Below, piece after piece: positions 772-63,440 of a stretch of 64,000 nt of DNA. Origin of the DNA: Octopus vulgaris. Taxonomy: Eukaryota. The stretch is from positions 67,332,001 through 67,396,000 of the forward strand of contig OX597816.1 of the NCBI GenBank assembly GCA_951406725.2, given 5' to 3'. The notes below the pieces were generated by a model, which saw only the letters and a list, made by a program, of their open reading frames with translations, was not told where the DNA came from and did not search any database. The translations under genes were made by a program, and so were the position numbers. Each line of letters begins with the position of its first letter. Positions within the stretch are counted from its first letter, which is position 1.

Positions 772-3700
772 GTATGTATATTGTTATAATAACTTATAAA
801 TTCCACCAGATGTAGATCTATTTTTTTGTTTATATTCATATACATTTTGTAAATTTACATGTATAAAATAACTTTTGTTTGTTCATTTTTACTTGATTTT
901 TTTTTATTTTGCTAAAATGTGGCAGGCTGTGATGTGGTGGTGGTGAGCAGGGTAGAGTATTATGTTAATTTGAAATTTTCTCTTTATTTAAAGCTGTCAC
1001 TTCTCCACCTCCAAACCTTCCATCCAGAGATGATGAAATTGCACGTATAATTAGTGAAATGACTTTACCAATTATGTTGTCTCCTATCCCTTCAGAACAT
1101 AATGAAGAGGTAAGTAGTCTTGTGTACTCTTTTACTGGTTCTGCCATGTAGTAGTGTTTGTGTACATCAAAATGTGTTCTCTTTGTTGTAATGTTGTTAA
1201 TAATTTTTCAGTTGTGAAGGCGGCGAGCTGGCAAAATCATTAGCATGCTGGGCGAAATGCTTTGCAGTATTTCATCTGCTGTTATGTTCTGAGTTCAAAT
1301 TCTGCCGAGGTCAACTTATCCTTTCGGGGTCAATAAATTAAGTACCAGTTATGCACTGGGTTCGATGTAATCAACTTAATCCCTTTGTCTGTCCTTGTTT
1401 GTCCCCTCTATGTTTAGCCCCTTGTGGGCAATAAAGAAATAAGAATCATTTGCACACCAGACAAAATGCTTAACAGCATTTTGTCAGTCTTTATTTTCTG
1501 AGTTCAAATTCCACCAAGGTTGACTTTGCCTTCATCCTTTTGGGATTGATAGAATAAGTAACAGTTGAATATGAGGTTGATGTAATTGACTTACCCATTC
1601 CCTGAAATTGCTGGCCTTGTGCCAAAATTTGAAACCAATATTTTTTCAGTTGGGGCACGGTAGAATTTTTAGAATGTTGGATAATCAGTCTTGCACTATT
1701 TAGTTATGTCCTATGTTCTAAATTCACCAAGGTTGACTTTGCATTTAATCTTTTCAGGATCAATAAAATAAATTACCTGTCAGGTACTGAAGTTTAATTA
1801 ATTATACTCGCTCTCAAAAATTCATGGCCTTCTGCTGCCAGTATTAAAAATCAATTATTCTCAGTTTTAATGTAGTATATTTTCACATGTGTATCATTTA
1901 TTACAGTACTACCTCTATGACCCAGCGTTGCCGGATCTAGTGCTAGCCAAGCATATATGGTCTTTCATGAAAATCCTGCTCTCTTGTCATTCACTTGGTC
2001 TAACTCGTTTATTAATTATTCCCTGCATTTCTCAAAGCAAAAAAGCGTGCACGTTTGAAAGCCAAAACACATGATAACGCGTCTTCGCAAAACACAAAAA
2101 TGCGCTGAGTCATACAGACTGTCTGCAAATGTGAACGCGCATGCAATTGTCAAGGGTAAAATTATCTCCGTCCAATCAAAAAGCAGCTGGCAGTCTATTG
2201 ACGTATCTAGCTGTACCGCGTACAAATTTCTATGTTTTAGCGATTTTGAATGGATATGCCCATAACTTATGAGCATAAGGGGTCGGTTTATCGATTTTTT
2301 TAATGGCTTTCTGGGGTGACTGGGGAAATGAAAAGATCTTCACGACCACCCTCAGGCAGTTTTGAAAGCCCATAGAAAATGTGAACCTTTTACATGTAAA
2401 ACTGTGGATTTGTATTAAGGACACACAGACACACAAACATTTTGCCGTTTATAGATATAGAGATTGTGTTATTATGTGATATAAAATAATAATTTATTTT
2501 AAGTTATAATATTGTTAGTAATAAGGCAGTAAGTTAGCAGTCATTAAAATATTGGATAAAATGTCTAATGATATTTGCTTTGGCTTTCTTTGCCCTGAGA
2601 TCAAATGAAAGGCAAAGTTAACCATCAAGGTCAACTTTGCCATTCAGTCAATAAATAAAATACTTTGAAGGCATGTGACCTATAGGTTAAGGCTCTGTAC
2701 TTATGATTATAAGATCATGGTTTTGATTCTCAAACTGGGCAGTGTGTTATGTTCTTGAGCAAAGCACTTCATTTCACATTGCTCCAGCCCACTCAGCTGT
2801 AAATGAGTTCCAACTTTATCTAGGAAGTTAACAGAGATGATTGTTGTAATCTTAGTCACTTATATGCTATGGAAATCAGGTTAAGCTCCAGCCTTATTAG
2901 TCCTAGGGCTCATTAAAAAAAAAAAAGTACCATCTCAGTGATTGACACACTTGGAAAGGGACAGTCACTTTCAGATAAAAGACACAACATTATGCCACAT
3001 CATCCTTATGACTCCATTAGGTATTGAAGGCCCAAGGTGTATAGGTTGTAATATAGTATATTTGTAATTTAATGTTTTGTTATACAATGTTATTATTCAG
3101 CTTGATGCCAGACATAATCAGACAGAATTGTGATCAAAGATGTTCCATACAGAACAATCTAGAACTGCATTAGCCAGTGTGTCCTCTTTTCCAAGACGAA
3201 TTGAGGGAGATTTGGCTGCTATTTTGGCATGCTAAGTCACCGTGTTGAAGATTCCTTGTCAGTTGGGGTATGTTGTTAGTTGTAATATGTTGTGTTACAT
3301 ATTGTTGGGGAATGTAACTTGTAGCATTGATGTTTTATAAGCTGAAAAGTATTGTGTTATAAGCTTTTTCTGTGTTTTGTATATAAGCTGTCATGCATTA
3401 ATATCAATTTCAGTGATGTGCACTGTTCATTTAGAGGTTTGTTTCATGTATTTCTGTATTAAAACTATGGTAACTAATTATATTAGGATGAAGCCTGCAG
3501 ATGTGGCTCTATGGGGTGGTGGGGGAATCTTGTTTTAACCCTGCCACAGCTTAACATAGTTATGATAAAATAAAGTATAACATGTTAAAAATATGGGCTA
3601 AAGAGGAAGATACTTTATACAATATCTGTGTAGAATTAGAGAAATAGGAATCATTATCAAATACTAAGATTAACTTTTTTTAATTTTATGTCTGATTTGA

Positions 3701-6700
3701 GTTAAATGGTTCTACAAACTCGTGCATTTACGTTTGTTTGACCCTTCAGCATTCAGATTTCTTTTTCAAATTTATTGCTTATTTATCCACATTGTTTTGA
3801 ATTAATTATGCATTATTTCATAGCTTCAAGATTTCAATGATGCGATTGTTTATTTTTAGAATGACATTGCAGGGTAGGTGTGAGAGGTTTAACATAAAAC
3901 AGGTAGAATATTTGGGCCAGATTAAATGCTAAAGGGTTAAGTATTGGATTGTCTGGAAAGTTCATGCCGATTTTTAAAGGAAAGAGAAACGTCAATAAAT
4001 ACTTGCCATTACATTTTTAATCAACCAAATATGAACCATTTTGTTGCATAATGCGTCTCCATCTTTCCTTTAACTTGAAAATACCCTCTTCCCAGAATTG
4101 AGGTGGTTTCATGGCAAAGATTTCATCAAGGTATCTTTTTACGTCATTCAAGGAATTGAAATTTTTACCATTAAGACTATTCTGCAGAGACCTGAATAAG
4201 TAGAAATCCGAAGGAGCAATATCTGGTGAATATGGAGGGAGGGTAACACATCCCAGTTGAGCTGCAGCAATTTTTGTCTGGTTCCCAAAGCATCAAGTGC
4301 TGAAAATGAACTTTCTTATCATCCATTTTAAAGGGTTACAGAATTAACACAGGTTATAGGAACATAAACGTTATTCCACGAAAAGATAGCTTAAACAGTG
4401 CTCTAAACGGAGGTGTAGTCAAATCCTATTTTATGGACTCAACCATATTCTAAAATAAGTCGAATGGTGAGCTACTATAAATCGGCATGAACTTTCCTGA
4501 CAACCCAATAGATACATGTACATGGTCAGTGTTTTATGTAACCTGTTACAATTCATAGCATAAACATTACATATGCGCATGTTGAATTGTAAGCAATTAA
4601 CTATCATAAATAACATTTACATGAATATTAACTTTCAACATTTTAATATGCTTGTTTTATTTTATTTTATTTATATTTATATTTTAGGATGATGAAAATT
4701 CATTCTGTAGCCTTCCAGATCAGAATGGCTGTGATGATGGTTCTGTTGACCACTTTGCAGAAATGTTGGAGACAGAATTTCTTAAAGGAGTTGATGCTGA
4801 CAGTGAAACCAATAAAGTACAAGATGCTGTGATGCTACCAAATGACAATTCTTGCCATCTTTTGCAATCTCCTCAGAATGAGGATCATTTACAGGTTAAT
4901 CCTTATCAAATAAATGAAAATGGTATCAATACTACCACAATTGTCTGTGATAAAAATAGTGAAAGTGGTAATGATCATCTCAATGCTGAACAAGGTTGCA
5001 TGAAACAAGATTTAGAAGATGGAAGTTCTAAACAGTTTGAAAGTGTTCCTGGTACAGCAATCCGTACAGACGTTATCCAGATAAATGACACAGAACTTTT
5101 ACCACGTTCTGGTAATATAAATTCTGGAGATGTCTCTACACCTGATTCTGTAACATATCACAATGTTGCTTATAATTACACTGATACAATGCCAAGTCAT
5201 GGTGAAACATTGTTAAATGATAAAATCAATACAAATCCACCAGCACCTAGAAAATGTTCAAATTTGTTTGATGAAAACTTAAAGAAATCTAAAGAAAACA
5301 AGGAGCAGGATATAATTAGTGAATCTTTGGTTGAATATCAGAATGATAATGATAATAAATGTGATATCAAGTGCGGCTATAATTCTGATTGCAGCAAAGC
5401 AAATTCAAACAAAATTTTGGAAAACCATATAGCAAAAGATCTTAGTCAAACTGCTGATAATTCAAAGTTTGATTCTGTTACATTCCATGAAGATGCTTAT
5501 AATAACACTGAAACTCTTTCAGTTTGTGGTGTAACATCTTTAGAAAATGAAATTGATGCAAATCTATCAGTTCAAAGGAAATGTTCAGATTCGTCTGAAG
5601 GTACCTTAAAGATATCTAAAGATAGGAAGAAGAGGAATATCAATAAAGAATCTTTGGCTAAAAATCAGAATGACAATGATAGAAACAAATCTAATACCAT
5701 GTGTGGTTATAACTCTGATTATAACAAAATGAATTCAAAAGAGGTTTTAGGAAACCATATTGAAGAAAATTCCAGTGAAACTGTTGATATTAAGATTGGA
5801 TCACTGTCTGCTAAGATTCCTGCAATAACAAAAGATTTATCTGAAGCAGACTTGAGGTTAACTATTTCTGAAACATTTCAGCTAACTCAACCTCCACATC
5901 ACCAAAATGACATCATTAATTATCATCATTCACAGAATAACTCCCAAACCTTAGATACTGAAAATTTTAAAGATGAAAACCTAGCAGTTAAAAATATTTT
6001 GGATGATAAAAGCCTTCTTCATGAATTTTCTTTGTCTAAAGATGATAAATCTTCAAATCTTTCCTTGTTATTTAACAAATCAGACAGTAAATTAAACAAT
6101 TCAGAAACTCACTTTAACAATTCAGAGATTAAAGTCAACAATTTAGAAACTAAAGTTAATAATTCAGAAACTAGATTCAGCAATTCAGAAACTAAATTCA
6201 ACAATTCAGAAACTAGATTCAGCAATTCAGAAACTAAATTCAACAATTCAGAAACTAAATTCATTGATTCAGAAACTCAATTTAACGATCCAAAAACAAA
6301 ATTTAACAATCCAGAAACTAAATTTAATGATTCAAAAACTATATTTAACAATCCAGAAACTAAATCTAACAATCCAGAAACTAAATTTAACAATCCAGAA
6401 ACTAAATTTAACAATCCAGAAACTAAATTTAACAATCCAGAAACTAATTTTAACAATCCAGAAACTAAATTTCACAATTCAGAAACTAAATTTCACAATT
6501 CAGAAACTAAATTTCACAATTCAGAAACTAAATTTAACAATCCAGAAACTAAATTTAACAATCCAGAAACTAAATTTAACAACCCAGAAACTAAATTTAA
6601 TGATTCAGAAATTAAATTTAACAATTCTAAGAAAACAAATATCATATCCGCATCAGTCTCTCTTCCTAAAATATCTGAAATAGTTATTGCTAATAATGAA

Positions 6701-9700
6701 ATGGAAGATCTAAATGATAGAACTAGTTTGGTATCCAATGAACCAGCAGCATTGAAACTCCAAGAGAAAGTTTGTACTGAGATTAACAATGGAAATACTT
6801 CCAGTGAAGAATTTAATGATTTTAGTGATGATTCTTTAGATTTGGATTACAACACATCTAAGAAAGTGGGCTTTCAAAGAAATTCAGTAGAATATGTAGC
6901 TGATGGTGAGATAAAGGAACGTCACCTGATTAAAATTGAACATTCATATGCATTAGAAACTATGAACGATGAAGATAGCTTGATATTTTCTGATTCACTC
7001 TCTGAGCAAGAAATAGATTCAAGTTTAGCTAAATGTTATACAACAAAACCTAAGCCTACTACCTTTATAAATGACTTGTTTGGTATTTGTAGTTCAGACT
7101 CTGAAAGTGAGAAGCAATTTTCAAATAGTGATATTCCTTTAAAATCTGTAAATAATAGTGATAGAATAGAAACCAGTACAAACTCTGATGACCCAAATTC
7201 CCAAACCTTTCCAGTGAAATTAAAGGAATTACAGTCTGAAGATATTCCTTTAAAATCTGTAAATAATAGTGATAGGATAGAAAGCAATAAAAATTCTGAT
7301 GACCCAAATTCCCAAATCTTTCCAGTGAAATTAAAGGAATTACAGTCTGAAGAGAAGACAATGCCTGAAGATAAAAATCTGCTGATCCGATGTGACTCTT
7401 TTAATACATCTCTAGATGTTGATGATAATAATGAAGATTCACAGCTGTCGAATTTCAGCATTAAGACAAATATGGAGCATAAAAAAGTTACTGCAACTGG
7501 AACAGCTTGTGGAGACATCAAAGAAAATAGTAAACCTTCCCAGAAGGTTGAAGAAGCTCCATGTATCAGAACTAATGTTGTAAATAATAAACCATCATCT
7601 CATATTAAATGTTCTGTAACCTTTCTCCAACATTCTACTTCATTATTGGATTCTATAAAATCTAAGAGCAAAGCAGTAGAGAATGGGAAAAACAATTCTG
7701 TGAGTTCAAAACAATTAGGATTTGAACAGGTCGTTGATTTCTGTCACAATACTGAGAAATCCCAGTCAGAAAACATAGCACATGACACATCATATCCAAA
7801 GATCTTTGCTCGAGAATCTAATGAAACTACTTCTAGTAATGATAGTCTGACATTAATTGAAGAGTTCATTTTAGTTGCTCCTCTGATAACTCCATTCCCA
7901 GATACTTTAGAATTTATCAAAAAACATTCTTCACACACAGATACGGTAAACAGTAAGTATGCTGTTGATCAAATCTCAACAAAGAGTTCTGTAGAGAACC
8001 CTTTGCCTCCACATCTGTCCATCAACTTTAGGAAAAGACCAACTGAAAATTCCATTCTACCAAATATCAGTAGTGGAAACAAAAACCATGTTAATAGTCA
8101 AGACAGCAAATACCCTGATGAACCGGTGCTAAAGAGCAGCAAGCAGACCCCTGTGAAAGTATTCAATCTTTCCCATAATTTATCATCTGACCAAAATGTC
8201 CCCAGCAAAATCTCAGCTACATTTGCTCACAGAAGGAGATTATTAAATAAATCCAGGTAAGAAATAAAAATTTTGTTGTCTCTTCTTCTGTATTGATGAA
8301 AGTTAGGATGTTGTTGTTGTTTTAGCCAAGCTTGATAAAAAAACAGGCCACTTAATGTATCTAGGACTGCATTATATAAGATCTTCTATTCTTTTGTTCT
8401 TTTTAAAGTGTTAGTCATTAGAGGGAGATTTGATATTCATTGGCTTGTTGAAAAAAAAATAACATCTATTGTTTGGTGATAGGAATAAAATTGTTTAGAG
8501 TCTTAATGAGTTTTAATCATTAGCACACCAAACAAAATACTTAAAGGCATTTCTTCCAGCTTTACATTCTGAGGTTGGCTTTACCTTTTATTCTTTCAGG
8601 GTTGATAAAATAGATGCCAGTTAAGCACTAAGGGTCGATGTGATCAGCTTCCATTTTCCCTCTAAATTGCTGACCTTGAGTGAAAAACTAGAAAGAATTA
8701 TTATTTTAATATCCTTATGAGTACAGAGTCATGACTAACATGCAAAATTTGTAGACAACATGATTTACACGAGATAGAATAATCACAGCCAGAAACACCA
8801 ATTCAATGAGTAATCACTTTGATAGGGTTTCTGTGTATCGTAGGTCTTCTCATGCAGAAGTCTCTGGAGATACACCATAATGACAACAGCTCAGTTTATA
8901 GAATCTACTGAATATATATTTCATCATCATCATCATCATCATCATTATGACCATGAAGACAACGACTGTTACCTGTTTATCTCTAACAATGCTAGTGCAT
9001 AAAAGCACCCACCACACTCTGTAAGGTGGTTGGCATTAGGAAGGGCATCCAGCTGCAGGAACCATGCCAAATTAGACTGGAGTCTGGTGCAGCTCCCCAG
9101 TTCAGGTCAAACCATCCAATAAATGCAGGCATGGGTGTTAAATGATGGTGGTCGTGGAGGTGGTGGTGGTGGTGATGATGATGATGATATACTCTGTGTT
9201 CAATTTGTATGTGTATTGTGTGTCTGTGTGTGTCGACTTGTGTGTAAGTGATTGTGTAATGTTTTCTACGGGGTGGGCCAAAAGTCACGAAAAGGTATGA
9301 GATGTTAATAAATTTTTTAAATTATTTTTTTTATTTAGATGTGATTTTTTTCTCACCTAGCTTACATCTATTGTGTGTATGATATTGCAGTATTCAGATG
9401 GCTGCACCAGACACCAATCTGATCTGGCAGAGTTTCTACAGCTGGATGCCCTTTCTAATGCCAACCACTCTGAGAGTGTAAAGCACCCACTACACTCTCG
9501 GAGTAGTTGGTGTTAGGAAGAGCATCCAGCTGTAGAAACTCTGCCAGATCAGATTGGAGTCTGGTGCAGCCATCTGGTTCGCCAGACATCAGTCAAATCG
9601 TCCAACCCATGCTAGCATGGAAATCGGACGTTAAACGATGATGATGATGATGTAAATTTAAAACAGAAAATAAAAAATTAAGAATGACTTTTGGCCCACC

Positions 9701-25435: not shown

Positions 25436-26566
25436 TATGTGTGTGTATATGTTTGTGTCTGTGTTTGTCTCCCCCAACATCGCTTGACAACCAATGGTGG
25501 CGTGTTTACGTCCCATAACTTAGTGGTTCGGCAAAATAGACCGAAAGAATAAGTATTAGGCTTACAAATAATAAGTCCTGGGGTAGATTTGCTTGACTAA
25601 AGGCAGTGCTCCAGCATGGCCGCAGTCAAATGACTGAAACAAGTAAAAGAGTAACATGAACTATTGATTGGCCAGTTGGACCCTACCTCCTCTTTCTGCC
25701 CATAAATCAAACAAAGTTGTTATTTAACTAAATCCCTCCAAATTGTTGAATACTTTAAAATTTTCTTGAAACATAGGCTGTGTGTTTCATTACAAATATT
25801 GTTATGCAATGGTTAAAGTTTGTCTACCACAGCACATTATTTTCAGTAATGATGCTACCTACCTTCTACCAGTTATTGTATTCTTTGTGTGGCATCATTT
25901 CAAAAATAGGCTCTTTTTAATTTTTCTTTATCTATTTCACAGGTGGACAAGTGACTTTACCTCAAGTTATTGAACACGTAGTAGTTAATTCAATCAAAGG
26001 AAAACATGTAGATAAAAAGGTGAGTGATCTTCAGGTTTGCTTCTGGTGTCTTCATTTTTTTTTTTTATGATTTGTTGATTTTTTTTCAAGAGTGCATTCA
26101 TAACTAAGCATGAAACAATTCATGCAAAGAATGCAAAACTATTCATTGAATTTGTTATGAATCTAATCTCCAACATTTCCATTTGTTCAATCACTGGTTA
26201 TTCTTATGATCATGTTCATTGAAGAAACCTTTTATTTAAAACTAGCACTATGACCCAGCGTTGCCAGGTCATAGTGCTAGTGTATGCATATATAGCTGCG
26301 TGCGTGCGCACATACACGCGAGTGCTATCCAAATCTCCAACCAATCACATAAAGCTAGCTGGCATTCAATTGGCGTATCAAGTTTCGGGCACTTTGATTG
26401 GGTTTTGGATAGAAAATTCACAAAAATGTCACTTCTATTGATTTTTTAATGGCTTTGCAGGGTGACTGGCGAAATGTAAAGATGTGCACGACAACCCTTG
26501 GACGGTTTTGAATGACCATAGAAAGTGCGAGCTCTCTGACTGAAAAATTGTGGATTTGTATAAAGG

Positions 26567-26597
<31 letters not shown>

Positions 26598-28183
26598 TAT
26601 TTTGCCGTTTATATATATAGAGATTGTAGTGACACTTGTCTCAATTCACCATGCACTGAATTGCTACAAACAATGGAGACATAGTTGTGTGATAAAGAAA
26701 CTTGCTTCCCAACCACATGGTTCCTTATTTAGTCCCACTGCATTACGACTTTGGCAAATGTCCTTTATTATAGCTCCAGGCTGACCAAAGCTTTGTGAGT
26801 AGATTTGGTAGATAGAAATTGAAAGTGTGTTGTGTATATATACACAGGTGCCTTTTTTGAGGAATCTGTGTTGATGACATATAAAAGGCACCCATGCTGG
26901 TGTTAGGAAGGGCATCCAGCTATAGAAACCAAGCCAAAATAGAGAACTGGTGTCTGGTACAGCTCTCTGGTTTACCACCTTCAATCAAATTGTCTAATCC
27001 ATGCCAGCATGGAAAACGGCTGTTAAATGATAATGGTATGCATGCGTGTGTGTTTGTGTGTGTGAGAGTTGCTATTCTCTTTTGATAATTGCAAGCAAGT
27101 GTTACCATCATACAAATGGTGTCCTTTGTTTCTAATCTTCTGTGTAAACATGTCCAGCCACAAGGAAATATTACCTTAGTTGAAAACAGGTAAGGGTCGG
27201 TGACAGGAAGGGCATCCAGTCATAAAAAAATCTACCTCAACAAATTCCATCTAACCCATGCTGAGCATGGAAAAGTCACTGTTAAGATGATGATGATGGC
27301 AGTAGTTATGAAGAAGAATGTGGCTGAGCTTGACAATATCAGCAACGCTGTTGAAGAACTTAAGAAAAGATTGGGGAAGGCAAGGGGAATTTTGCTAGTT
27401 GACATCAAAAAAGAAATTAAAGAATATATAAAGAATAGTTTTCCTGGAGTTGTGAACTTAATGATTTATGTAATTTTCATATTTCAAAGAAGGATTCCTC
27501 TGTTGGCTATATGAATAGAAATGAAGATATATTGGGAAAAACTTCAACCAGTGCTAAATTATTTCATAACAAAGCAATTACATAAACAAACAACATTCTC
27601 TGGATGCAAAAGGTGGCTTGGTGTTTGTAATTTTATTCCCAAAAAGGTCGACAGTATGTGGATGTATTCCTAGAATATATGTTTATAATAAAGATAACAC
27701 TATATGTCATGTCAGACCAAACTCCAGTTGCTGTCATGTTAACTCACAATAAGGCTAAGTGTCCATATCCAACTGTCAATTACTACAATAGCAGCTAAAA
27801 TAATGCGTGTATCATGAATGGGAGTGCAGAGTATATAAACAATTGAAAAGTATTCTTAATAACCTGTTTCAAGAAAAGAACATTTTATTTTTTAAAACTT
27901 TGGCTACAAGATACCATATTTGGCTAGGTTTGAGAAGAGAGCCACTAAGTCAATGTTAATAGTTATTAATGATGTAGGAGTATTCTTTTATTTGTTTCAG
28001 TCATTTGACGGTGGCCATGCTGGAACACCGCCTTTAGTCGAGCAAATCAACCCCAGGACTTATTCTTTGTAATCCTAGTACTTATTCTGTCAGTCTCTCT
28101 TGCCAAACTGCTAGGTGACGAGGACGTAAACACACCACCATTGGTTGTCAAGCAATGTTGCGGGGACAAACACAGACACACAA

Positions 28184-38719: not shown

Positions 38720-39363
38720 GCTCTCCGGCTATCTATCTGAGGCTTTATATAGCTTTGGTGTGGCCTCACCTGGAATTTGCATCACTAGCCTGGAAACCCT
38801 ATCTTGCCCAGGATATTAATCGTCTGGAAACTGTTCAGCAAATTGCAACCAAGAGAATACCCTCCATCAGGCATTTGCCATATTCTGAATACCTTACTTC
38901 GCCAGGCATGCATAGATGGAAACTCCCACATCTGGCAACTGACTTGGCAGACACCCATAAAATTATTAACCATCTTACTAACAATAACTCTGAGCACCTT
39001 TTCAAACTCCACCTGTCTAACACCTGTGGACATGTTTAAAAAGTCAGAAAACAGCACAGCTCCCATGACTTTCGGAAACATTTTTTCACACTAAGAGTTG
39101 CTGAAGCATGGAACAAACTGCTGGCATCAGTTGTTAGTTGTTGGAGCACTGCATCCTTCAAAACTTCCATGCTTCCTGAGATTCGCCAACACTACACCTG
39201 ATTTTCTCCCCTCCATACACACGCAAGCATGTATCTGACTCATACACTGTTCACTTTCCAGACATTTGTACATTACTGCTTAGGCTTTCTATGCACTTTT
39301 GGCAAGTTGTGGTGCACCTGAGCACTGTATAATATAATTTCATTATTATTATTATTATTATTA
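38720..39363 (+). mobile_element. CR1-clade LINE 3' end with (ATT)n tail
   Basis: LVWPHLEFASLAWKPY...LETVQQIATKRI...RKHFFTLRVAEAWNKL. Confidence 0.88.
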
Positions 39364-40162: not shown

Positions 40163-40660
40163 AATAATAACGAAATTATTGTATACAGTGCTCAGGTGCA
40201 CCACAACTTGTCAGAAAGTGCATATAAAGCCTAAGCAGTAATGTACAAATGTCTGGAAAGCGAACAGTGTATGAGTCAGATACATGCTTGTGTGTGTATG
40301 GAGGGGAGAAAATCAGGTGTAGTGTTGGCGAATCTCAGAAAGCATGAAAGTTTTGAAGGATGCAGTGCTCCGACAACTAACAACTGATGCCGGCAGTTTG
40401 TTCCATGCTTCAGCAACTCTCAGCGTGAAAAAATGTTTCCTAAAGCCATGGGAGCTGTGCTGTTTTCTGACTTTGTAAATATGTCCACGGGTGTTAGACG
40501 GGTGGAGTTTGAAAAGGTGCTCAGAGTTATTGTTTGTAAGATGGTTAATAATTTTATGGGTGTCTGCCAAGTCAGCTGCCAGACGTGGGAGTTTCAATGT
40601 GTCCATGCCCAGGGAAGTAAGGCGTTCAGAATATGGCAAATGCCTGATGGAGGGTATTCT
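40163..40660 (-). mobile_element. CR1-clade LINE 3' end, inverted relative to 38720-39363
   Basis: RIPSIRHLPYSERL...TRGH...RKHFFTLRVAEAWNKLPASVV; a third degraded copy at ~40970-41250(+). Confidence 0.88.
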
Positions 40661-41310
40661 TTTTTTTTTTTTTTTTTTAGCAGGATTTGAATTCAGAATG
40701 GAAGCAATACTGTAAAGCATTATTCCAGATGCTGTAACGATTTAGTCAGAAATTTGGTGGGAAGAGCTAGTCAGTCATATCGACCAGTGCTTGGCTCGTA
40801 CTTATTTTATTGACCTCGAAAGGATGAAAAAAAGATAACTTTGGTGGAATTTGAACTCAGAATGTGTAGCTGGAAGAATTGCTGCAGCGCATTTTGTTGG
40901 CATGCTAAAAATCCTGCCATCTGAGCTTTTATTTACTTTTTTTTTGTCAGAAATAATGATTGTTTCTATGACTTTCAGAGATATATTTTCACACTCAGAA
41001 TCTTTGAAACATGGAATAAACTACCTGCATTAGTAGTTGGCTGTCAAGACATTGCATCCTTCAAAATCTTCATGCTTCCTATAATTCTCTAACAGTATAC
41101 CTGATGCCCTCCCTCCTTTTTTCTTTAACGATTCATTCACTGTTCACTTCCTGTGCATTATGCTATGTACTGTTAATGTACTTTTGGCTTCTTTTTCTGA
41201 TTAATTGTAGTTCACCCGAGTACTGTGTACAATAATTTCATTGTATATTATAATTGCAATCTCAAGGAACACAAAAGAAAAAAAACTTGGTAAAGGGAGA
41301 TAACCACTGA

Positions 41311-41509: not shown

Positions 41510-44500
41510 GTTTGTAATTCCTTATAATGGTCACATTTTGCCTTGTTCGTCGTTTATTGTTTGGAACCAAATTCTTCCAGCCTTGGCGGAGTTCTTGAAT
41601 ATTTCTGTCGAGGAAGAATGCATTGTCTTGTGTAATTTCGCTTTTTAAAGACAGTAAGGTATCGTTTAATGGAGATTTGGTTACTGTTTAGGTGGCCAAG
41701 ACATCTCCTAAGGCTTAAGGCTTGTTTCGTTGTTTTGTCATGTGTTTGTCAAATTCATGTTTGTTTATTTAGCTTTAATATCAAGACTTTCGCGGGCGAA
41801 ATGCTTAGCAGTATTTCGTCTGTTCTTAGTTCAAATTCCTCCGAGGTTGACTTTGCCTTTCATCCTTTCGGGGTCGAAAAATTAAGTACCAGTTGCGTAC
41901 CTCCCCCACCAAATTTCGGCCCTTGTGCCCAGAGTAGAAAAGACTATTAAAACTTTCGCAAAAATCATTGTTAGAAACTGGTTTATTTATTAATTTATTT
42001 ATATTTTGGAATTAATATTTTTCAAATATAATTCTAAAATTTTTCACTCAAGCGTAATAGCTTTAAAAACTTATGAGAAAATTTGGGAAAAAATTTGCGC
42101 AAACTAATTACCTGTTTCTATTGTATTCCATTTCGCCCATTAGCAATTCCGTGGGTATTTTCAAAATTTGGTTTTCAGTAATATTTTTACCATTTCTACT
42201 TCTGTGACGTACAGTAACAAAAACTTTACATGTCAAAGGTGTTAAAAGTAATTAAATGGTAAATAATGAAACCGCCGTTGACCATTAAGTTATTTACATA
42301 GAATTTCAATTTTGAAGATATTAGAGGAATCAGTTTTATTTTGGTTACATTTTGCTAAGCATTTTAGAGGAAAGAGAAACGAGCAATTGTGATGTTTTTC
42401 TCTGAAAGTAATTAACGGCTTCGAATGGAAACTGCTGGAGAACTTAAATCAGCCTGCAACTAAATGAACTGAGGATAATGGAAATAAGTTGTGTAGTCAC
42501 AAGTTATTTTTAATTAAGCAAGCAGGTAGTCGGTCAAACAACAAAGTGCGCCCGGCAAATCTATGTTTTTGTGGTTATGTCATAACTGCACTTAACTGAA
42601 AATCATACTGCACATTCTGATATGCAATAAAATTTCGTAGGAGAGGCTGTGTGGTAAGTAGCGTGCTTACCAACCACATAGTTCTGAGTTCAGTCCCACT
42701 ACATGGCACCTTGGGCAAGTGTCTTCTACAATAGCCTCAGGCCGACCAAAGCTTTGTGAGTGGATTTGGTAGACGGAAACTGAAAGAAGCCTGTTGTATA
42801 CATATATATATATATGTGTGTGTGTATCTGTATTTGTCCCCCCAACATCACTTGACAACTGATACTGGTGTATTTATGTCTCCGTAACTTAGCGGTTCAG
42901 TAAAAGAGACCAATAGAACAAGTACTGGGGTCAATTTGCTTGACTAAGGCGGTGCCCCAGCATGGCTGCAGTCAAATGACTGAAACAAGTAAAAGAATAA
43001 ACGAATTGGTTGCCGTGTAATGATAGTCTGAACATATTGCACTCTCCCCACAGTTCAGTCTTTGTATGACTTAGTTTAATCTTACCTTAACCCTATTTGA
43101 ATTAAACTTATGATTGAAATCATTCCAACTTCGACTGTCTTGTTTTTTCCTTATGTGCAGTATGCATAGGATAACGTTGTAGCTTTTCTGAGACAATGAA
43201 GTGTGGGATCTGGTCATTATATCTAGCAAAAGAAGCCCTGAATAATATTTATAAACTCTGGTGATAGTCTCAGTGGAAGCCAGCAAGGTGGACAAGGTCA
43301 AGGAACCATAGTTGCACCTTATCTATTTGTTGAAATAAATGTCTGTCTAAAATCAAAACAAGATACCTGCAGTGATATGAACTCAAGACCTAATTGGTAC
43401 TCTGAAACCTTATTCACTTGATTATTTTACCCCAACAACTAAAACTACAAAATAACCTACTAATCTTGTTGAACCTTAATCCATGAAGTGGGGAGAATAC
43501 AACAGTTTGCAATTAGCTGTTTATAATCTCTATATATAAACGGCAAAATGTCTGTGTGTGTGTCCTTTATACAAATCCACAATTTTTCAGTTAGAGGGCT
43601 TGCACTTTCTATGGTCATTCAAAACCATTCAAGGGTGGTCGTGCACATCTTTACATTTCCCCAGTCAACCTGCAAAGCCATTAAAAAATCAACAGAAGTG
43701 ACTTTTTTGTGAATTTTCTATCCAAAACCCAATCAAAATGCCCGAAACTTGATACGCCAATTGAATGCCAGCTAGCTGTATGTGATTGGTTGGAGATTTG
43801 GACAGTATTCGCGTGTATGCGCAAGCACGCAGCTGTGTATGCATGCATTAGCACTATGACTCGGCGTTACCGGGTCATAGTGCTTGTGAATGGACTTGAT
43901 AGACAGAAATTGAAAGAAGCCCATCATGTGCGTATGTGTGAGAGAGAGGGAGTATGTTTGTGTCTTGTTCTGATTGTTGTAAATGAATGTCATTCATTTC
44001 CAATATTCTGCAAAACAAGGAGAAATATTAATTGTTTGGAAACAGTTAGCGACAGGGAGGGAATCCAGCCACAGAATATCTACTTCAATAATCTCCATCC
44101 AACCCAGGCAACCATAGTAAAGTGGTTTGAATGAATATGAAGATAAATTAAGCATAAGATTCTGGGAACTAAAAATCTTCAGAAAATATTTTTCATATAC
44201 GTATATATAAATACAAGCACTATGACCCGGTAACGCCGAGTTATAGTGCTTGTATTTATATATACGTATATGAAAAATATTTTCTGAAGATTTTTAGTTC
44301 CCAGAATCTTATGCTTAATTTATCTCCATATTCATTCAAACCACTTTACTATGGTTGCCTGGGTTGGATGGAGATTATTGAAGTAGATATTCTGTGGCTG
44401 GATTCCCTCCCTGTCGCTAACTGTTTCCAAACAATTAATATTTCTCCTTGTTTTGCAGAATATTGGAAATGAATGACATTCATTTACAACAATCAGAACA

Positions 44501-45930
44501 AGACACAAACATACTCCCTCTCTCTCACACATACGCACATGATGGGCTTCTTTCAATTTCTGTCTATCAAGTCCATTCACAAGTCTTTGGTTGGTTTGGG
44601 GCTATAGTAGAAGACACTTGCCCAATGCGCTATGCAGTGGGATTGAATCTAAAACTATGTTGGGAAGCAAACTTCTTAGCCATGCCTATGGCTGCTTTTT
44701 ATTCAGCCAATTTCTGGGGAAGGTGGGGATGCTTGTAACCTTTGTAAGCTCTTTGAGACTAATGACATGAATGTAGCATGCTGACAATTAACAGGGAGGA
44801 ACATCTGGAGTGATTGCTTTGTTAGCGAGATAGTTATTGTTCTTTAGCACCTTATCAGATCTAACTGAGCAGACTAACAATCAGAGGTATTCCAACTATG
44901 GCCATCCTGAGAGTTGCTACAGACAGCCAGTTTTAAACACTTCTGTATGGTCTGTAATATAAAAAAAAATAGGAGAGGACTGAGACCTGATGGACACTTA
45001 ACCTGCAGGCTAAATTTATCATTGTATCACTGACTGTATCGCTATGTATGACTGGTGTAATTGTCACAAGCCATTTATCTATTCCTGATTTATTTACGGA
45101 GCACCAAATTACAAAACAGAATCCAGCCAAAGGCTTTCTCTGGCCCTACAAATACTCAGTATAGGAGCTTACTCTTAGATATGTGCTTCTGTAGTTATCT
45201 CTTGGAATATAGCATGGTAGTATTTCTTCCTAGTACAATGCCAAACTGCATTTCATCACTAATACTCTTCCTGATCAATTGCAAAATAATTCTTTCTATA
45301 ACTTTCACGACCTGGTCCAACAATTTGGTCTGCTTTGCAGATTTGTTGACCACACACCCATGCTTGCATGTGCATGCATGCACACACACACACACACACA
45401 CACGGGTGTGTGCTCTCAGATGCTATTTCTATATATGTCTAGCTAATAATTTGTGGATATTTTTTGGCGCTTGTGTATGTGTGATGATATTTTCATTTGA
45501 TGCTGTGTAATAATCCATACTTCTCTACTGTTTTTACTTGCATTTAATTAGTTTTAGCTTACTGTAGCCTTTATTATGTCATGTTTTAATTCTTTTTCTA
45601 ATCCTTCTCTTCCCTTTCTTCTTCTTATCTTTGGCCTTATTCTACCTCATACACCCATACTCATGATTTCCATTGCTTTATTTACTGCCAATTCCACTTT
45701 GTTTTTACGCATAATAATACCATTTCGGACGATTGGTCCTTCAGCCCTCTTTGTCTATCTTTCTCATAACCTTTTCTCTTATTATACTTCTATTTTATTT
45801 ACCCCAACTTTCAGTATTTATCCTTCCGTATTTAAAATATGCTATTATTTTAGAAACTTATTTAAAACCAGTCTAAATGAGTCACCTCTTTATACTTTTT
45901 CCAGATAATTCTTTTAAACTAATTAGTAGG

Positions 45931-57341: not shown

Positions 57342-63440
<6,099 letters not shown>

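Follow-up and report, generated by a model that had tools for sequence, protein, structure and literature searches.

The window analysed here, a stretch of 64,000 nucleotides of the Octopus vulgaris genome (contig OX597816.1, positions 67,332,001 to 67,396,000), contains copies of a Helitron-like element whose 3' end is a palindrome of 39 nt closed by a three-nucleotide loop, which reads AAC in some copies and GTT in others. How does a transposon end come to exist in these two forms? An earlier note, made from the letters of the window, had offered two answers: hairpin transfer, as in the replication of parvoviruses, or an inversion of the hairpin after insertion. The features that raise the question are listed below, in window coordinates.

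1909..2463, minus strand: copy A, a related Helitron that differs in its middle part; a degenerate form of the S1 palindrome lies at 1909-1946, loop AAC
26242..26623, minus strand: copy B, a member of the non-autonomous Helitron family S1; ~380 nt, 93% identity to the natural copy L053
26242..26280, minus strand: terminal palindrome of copy B; loop AAC, two CpG-type mismatches in the stem
43527..43886, plus strand: copy C (S1); hairpin at 43848-43886, loop GTT, terminus mutated to CTTG
43887..44213, plus strand: X, inverted duplicate of the native downstream flank of copy C; 1 mismatch to the native flank
44214..44252, plus strand: second hairpin, H2, the reverse complement of copy C's hairpin, whose private mutations it shares; loop AAC, adjoining the native flank
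44253..44579, plus strand: X', the native downstream flank of copy C; runs unbroken into a SINE-like repeat (~44526-44678)
57474..57824, plus strand: copy D (S1); hairpin at 57786-57824, loop GTT, four mismatches in the stem

A direct check of the sequence confirmed the coordinates and strands that the earlier note had given for its four copies, as well as their loops on the element strand, AAC in A and B and GTT in C and D. The single family that it had made of them needs to be divided: B, C and D, which each show 92-94% identity with a natural copy from the genome, belong together and are what we call S1, while copy A, though related, is another element, with an identity to the others of 77-83% that is confined to its first 175 nt and a 1-nt deletion in its hairpin. 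Its count of terminal hairpins was incomplete, as it had missed H2. All four copies start at A^TC and terminate at or near CTAG^T (^ marks the boundary of the element), and none carries the perfect 39-mer. The exact palindrome together with 18 nt of body matches 105 S1 copies genome-wide, 48 with AAC and 57 with GTT, so the consensus proposed from the four imperfect copies was right; reversed-pattern controls gave 0 matches. The plus-strand reading of GTT in all four loops, which had been put down as possibly chance, is indeed chance: genome-wide, the plus strand reads GTT 114 times and AAC 139 times. Elsewhere in the window, an open frame of 1,190 aa (4688-8260, plus strand) contains a tandem array of about 26 repeats of 7 residues (21-nt unit, 5964-6761) and probably represents one large exon belonging to a host gene, and a 449-nt inverted pair (38851-39299 and 40215-40663, 94% complementary, 915 nt apart) has a translation resembling the end of a retrotransposon protein.

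In order to characterize the family we searched the whole assembly (2.8 Gb), in which an exact 19-nt body anchor identifies at least 1,899 S1 copies. The first 100 matches of this body anchor, selected without regard to the hairpin (the hairpin-blind sample), include 74 with an intact hairpin. The terminus is CTAG^T in 63 of these 74, and a T stands next to it in 73; the start, not located in 24, is A^TC in 45 of the remaining 50. As to the target-site duplications and terminal inverted repeats that the earlier note had named as arguments against a Helitron, direct repeats flanking the element measure 0-3 nt in 47 of 50 copies and 6-10 nt in the other 3 (TA-rich flanks are common), and the two ends are not complementary, so that there are no terminal inverted repeats. 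With these ends and a RepHel partner in the genome, the assignment stands: S1 is a non-autonomous Helitron. The GC-rich core of its hairpin stops 10 nt before the terminus, as is usual, and beyond it the arms remain paired up to the final nucleotide (-21.7 kcal/mol), forming a perfect 18-bp stem that reaches the terminal CTAG just as first described, a variant of the canonical short hairpin. The bodies form a star, each about 3.8% from the majority letters. At four loci (L003, L041, L185 and L270) another repeat, likely also a Helitron, has its 5' end at the S1 3' end or a few bases from it.

The genome also contains a young family of autonomous Helitrons with open frames of up to 1,744 aa, one member of which matches Helitron_like_N (E=1.8e-51) and PIF1 (E=5e-62) and carries HUH and Y2 motifs. 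Its first 19 nt are identical to those of S1 and its last 29 nt are similar. On this shared sequence it is likely the autonomous partner of S1, which we infer to have been mobilised by it in trans. The end of the Rep-Hel partner, which the earlier note had wished to see examined, proved ordinary: instead of a long palindrome, 11 of 11 ends (15 RepHel loci were read) have a short hairpin of the canonical type, placed 11 nt before CTAG and closed by AAC. Many copies are near-identical (e.g. L111, L113, L116, L124), with RepHel open frames of 1,500-1,744 aa, and the family is possibly still active. For comparison we used a non-autonomous Helitron family with a canonical short 3' hairpin, of which one 3' end alone has at least 19,592 copies (e.g. 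L166-L171); flipped loops were found in 0 of 100 among the matches listed, of 19,592. At position 7 of the S1 stem several copies carry a recurrent C-to-G change to the letter found in this large family, a possible exchange between families.

Both loop isomers are common in S1, as the earlier note had supposed. The hairpin-blind sample contains 52 GTT and 22 AAC copies, a departure from 1:1 (p=0.0006), besides 26 in which the hairpin is deleted or cut, and among the 40 copies whose bodies lie closest to a query about 26 are GTT and 10 AAC; without selection, then, the family is ~70% GTT and ~30% AAC. A first count of 126:127 had suggested a 1:1 equilibrium, which we rejected since its anchor mixed in a sister family (S2, below) and favoured perfect stems, and unselected copies stand at 70:30. 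Among the papers listed by searches of mostly open-access literature, there was no report of loop isomers in Helitrons.

One conceivable history is a single inversion per family, after which founders of the two isomers, identical in body, amplified in parallel and never flipped again. The mapping of the loop on a body tree, proposed in the earlier note, speaks neither for nor against this: loop state requires 28 changes on the S1 tree, against 27.6 with shuffled labels, and is thus unlinked to it, but the tree is a star without supported branches, on which one origin is formally possible. Among 154 body variants tested none tracks the loop after correction, so that diagnostic variants of two founders are lacking, and the isomers are of equal age; all 8 copies with one shared body variant are GTT, as parallel founders might leave, with p=0.02 before correction for the 154 tests. 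(A link between a T at position 7 of the left arm and GTT was rejected, the association being absent from hairpin-blind copies.) Parallel founders also need separate events in S1 and in each of the two families described next, and they leave unexplained the shift between perfect and damaged stems reported below; we regard them as very improbable.

Two sister families, S2 and S3, differ from S1 in body and 5' end and have the palindrome in common with it, except that an inherited C.A mismatch interrupts the stem seven pairs from its end. The loop is GTT in 7 of 37 S3 copies and in 7 of 40 S2 copies (36 of the 40 read directly; 8 of 48 matches were S1 bodies and were left out before counting), giving 14 flipped copies in 77. 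Flips in three families with different bodies bear out the recurrent inversion that the earlier note had proposed. Both sister families have Helitron 5' ends of their own, with internal indels, and the idea that they are 5'-truncated retrotransposons was rejected. An S2 sub-lineage (L002, L373, L377, L378, L380, L381) whose right arm carries 1 inserted nt, and whose perfect inner stem is therefore shorter, is unflipped in 6 of 6 copies; S2 also has an apparent captured coding fragment. The S3 body (e.g. L068) contains, ~230-130 nt upstream of the hairpin, a motif pair resembling a hammerhead ribozyme core.

The inherited mismatch allows hairpin transfer to be distinguished from other kinds of inversion. 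In the rolling-hairpin replication of parvoviruses and AAV, which depends on an initiator of the HUH family, the terminal palindrome is paired to the 3' end and flip and flop isomers arise. Such a transfer would invert the hairpin as a whole, carrying a mismatch in the stem to the other side, and would yield isomers at about 1:1. In the 14 flipped S2 and S3 copies, the C.A mismatch is in place in 12, homogenised in 2 and swapped in 0 (arms are homogenised in 2 of 47 unflipped copies). Since hairpin transfer would swap the marker in all 14, the parvovirus-like answer of the earlier note fails where it is testable; the S1 ratio of ~70:30 instead of 1:1 and the short hairpin of the partner likewise count against it. 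The exchange points of these flips are internal to the stem, the arrangement also seen in template switching. Body-hairpin-inverted-body products were found in 0 of 139 loci and in 0 of 98 loci read earlier, although integrated copies need not keep such intermediates.

In S1 the founder stem is symmetric, and a whole-hairpin flip would therefore leave no trace in the sequence. A version limited to this family can accordingly be formulated, in which an AAC donor primes itself from its paired 3' end, Rep resolves the product, all products are GTT and relaxation in place then leads towards 50:50. The stem does pair to its final base, and S1, at 70% GTT, stands apart from the other Helitron families examined in this genome, in which AAC is the sole or the prevailing loop; given a symmetric stem, an AAC donor with obligatory transfer equals a GTT founder by sequence. 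Helraiser, moreover, depends on its loop sequence for full activity, according to the available part of PMC4778049. The absence of swapped markers and of body-hairpin-inverted-body products and the short hairpin of the partner weigh against this version too, and a single template switch makes a GTT founder more simply, L139 being such a product in S3. We consider hairpin transfer in S1 highly unlikely.

Inversion after insertion is favoured by the relation between loop and stem. Patterns allowing up to 3 mismatches match 650 times with AAC and 1,364 times with GTT. The GTT share is 54% in perfect stems (57:48) and ~70% in those with 1-3 mismatches (~1259:545; a class obtained by subtracting the perfect copies and the perfect copies of the other isomer, and including mismatches in anchor and loop), and the difference is significant (Fisher p=0.0015; with tandem duplicates collapsed, p=0.0013). 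The body divergence of perfect AAC copies (0.040, n=31) is no lower than that of perfect GTT copies (0.036, n=32), so the former are not younger, and the isomers, being reverse complements, should be equally mutable. Mutations acquired after insertion cannot alter a ratio fixed at transposition, so this shift favours flips that happened later. Flips also follow the stem across families, from 0 of 100 listed short-hairpin copies and 0 of 11 autonomous ends to 14 of 77 copies with the interrupted stem of S2 and S3. On these sequence data the S1 loop was probably inverted repeatedly after insertion, by host polymerases that switched template between the arms. Inversion after insertion is thus the better supported of the two options in the earlier note, given the shift with stem quality and the 14 flips without a swapped marker.

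An in-situ model with a GTT founder, fitted with two parameters, estimates that a perfect copy has flipped ~1.0 times since the family arose (kT, range 0.66-1.44) and puts the flip rate of damaged stems at 0.2x (0.08-0.53), about five times lower. It predicts 57% GTT in perfect S1, 70% in damaged S1 and 17% in S2/S3, where 54%, 70% and 18% are observed (the fit used 14/79 for S2/S3; the final count is 14/77). Its lnL is -8.7, against -8.6 for a saturated model and -13.8 for a constant ratio. Dividing kT by 0.038 substitutions per site gives an estimate of ~17-38 loop flips per base substitution.

Some results do not follow this pattern. In 97 hairpin-blind S1 copies there is no gradient (GTT in 7 of 8 and in 68%, 73% and 72% at 0, 1, 2 and 3+ arm mismatches), the perfect copies of contig 1 are 4 GTT and 0 AAC, and the mutation load of the stem is alike in AAC (2.14) and GTT (1.94) copies. 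With the hairpin-blind sample flat and the load equal, it is the 105 perfect copies, together with an overlapping 34-mer set, that carry the gradient. Mirrored mutations in the two arms show no significant excess in S1 (6 observed, p=0.27; 3 non-CpG, p=0.08), the three non-CpG ones all in AAC copies. In three sets of duplicated insertions the loop is unchanged, one of them with ~5% divergence in the flank and 2% in the element. The flat sample, these loop-keeping duplicates and the 8 of 8 GTT variant leave room for a contribution at transposition. Flips could indeed arise mainly at that stage, by a stem-dependent template switch during displacement of the Rep-nicked strand or synthesis of the circle's second strand, with flips in place a minor addition. 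The flat 70% plateau of hairpin-blind copies and the concordant duplicates agree with this account, as does a loop unlinked to the body tree, and the inner flips of S2 and S3 are explained equally well. It offers no reason why perfect-stem copies of equal age should be nearer 50:50, and copy C shows that the stem engaged in a strand switch after its private mutations arose. We judge a main origin at transposition rather unlikely, although clearly not negligible.

It could also be argued that errors of sequencing, assembly or polishing randomise the loop at perfect hairpins, since perfect stems are the class nearest 50:50 and loops at single sites were called from the assembly alone. Such errors fit poorly with the abundance of both isomers in damaged stems (52:22) and with duplicated insertions that agree in loop. 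CpG-decayed loops, furthermore, are found in both forms, AAT and ATT, which indicates that both states are old. We give this explanation almost no weight.

Copy C provides the example of a strand switch at an inserted element. It is followed by X (327 nt), H2 and the reverse complement of X, a young local inverted duplication; the inverted repeat measures 348 nt and has H2 in its middle, and outside the hairpin X and X' differ at 1 of 327 nt. Since the downstream arm X' continues unbroken into the SINE-like repeat, it is the native flank. Of the two junctions, one has a 5-nt microhomology and the other lies in the Helitron stem. The simplest reading of this arrangement is that two template switches occurred at an already inserted and already mutated copy and left AAC beside the native flank. 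The structure, a single example with microhomology at a junction, would also result if a circle of the bottom Helitron strand had re-integrated at the stem. Similar inverted duplications were found in 0 of 98 and 0 of 139 loci, and L185, considered as a second, was rejected as two copies of another repeat. Loss of the hairpin is more frequent: the 26 deleted or cut hairpins per 100 copies comprise 13 internal deletions of at least 5 nt within the 39 nt, 12 copies without the right part and 1 without 1 nt, compared with about 3 deletions per 39 nt of body per 100 copies (one rearranged copy left out). Some of the 12 right-part losses may be truncations at insertion. The hairpin deletions and the copy C duplication likely stem from the same instability.

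Template switching after insertion would then give the following history. S1 elements, mobilised in trans by the RepHel family with which they have a 5' end in common, would descend from a founder with GTT and have spread in one burst ~3.8% of divergence ago. During later rounds of host replication, a new strand would leave its template in the left arm, copy the loop from the opposite strand and return in the right arm. This would happen about once per perfect copy over the age of the family, and about five times more rarely where the stem is interrupted, so that perfect copies would drift near 50:50 while damaged ones would remain near 70% GTT.

Our verdict is that S1 has a real and unusual Helitron end, and that the mutational mechanism most likely behind its loop flips is already known. 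ODIRA-like events produce inverted duplications by template switching at short inverted repeats, and at copy C too a flank is duplicated in inverted orientation between two short inverted-repeat junctions, although over only ~370 nt and with the Helitron stem as one junction. With parvoviruses and AAV, S1 shares the HUH-family initiator, the terminal palindrome paired to the 3' end and the two isomers; it differs in that marked stems (S2/S3) invert only inside the mark, in ratios of 70:30 and 18:82 and in a partner without a long palindrome. The available sections of PMC5714925 present the rolling-hairpin and Helitron models separately. In yeast, according to the sections available of PMC8604942, which cites the Ripley model for template switching at inverted repeats, a spacer between arms of more than 9 bp is inverted by intermolecular template switching, reversibly and once with conversion to a perfect repeat. 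A short spacer inverted between arms of this length is what we see in S1; the loops of S1, S2 and S3 are exact reverse complements, and flip frequency rises with the length of perfect arm, as in that process. S1 differs from the yeast case in offering thousands of hairpins of the same age in an animal nuclear genome, from which rate and stem dependence can be estimated. Hairpin-associated small inversions in chloroplast spacers also recur and are polymorphic (PMC2903610, in the part available); palindrome-associated and recurrent like those of S1, they concern single organelle loci with polymorphism, whereas S1 has many nuclear copies known from one assembly.

Compared with canonical Helitrons such as Helibat and Helraiser, as far as the accessible part of PMC4778049 describes them, S1 agrees with them in its ends (5'-TC, CTAG-3'), in inserting between A and T, in lacking terminal inverted repeats and in having a 3' hairpin and a RepHel partner in the genome. 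The 19-bp palindrome of Helraiser, located 11 nt upstream of the end, acts as a terminator, and a change in its loop lowers activity to the level of a deletion mutant (PMC4778049, same part). Unlike Helraiser, S1 has a stem that runs to the last base, which places CTAG^T on both strands, and a loop in two orientations. Helraiser depends on its loop, yet the majority isomer of S1 has AAC on the opposite strand and a precise CTAG end. Precise ends with a GTT loop would mean that recognition of the terminator works on either strand or depends on its shape, or that flipping is tied to transposition. Hairpin transfer in S1, if true, would explain a GTT majority among AAC Helitrons and link Helitron transposition to parvovirus replication. 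S1 is in effect a natural mutation-accumulation experiment with thousands of hairpins of the same age, in which, by the model estimate, the loop of a perfect 18-bp stem in an animal nucleus inverts ~17-38 times as often as a base is substituted, and in which about a quarter of the hairpins have been deleted or cut.
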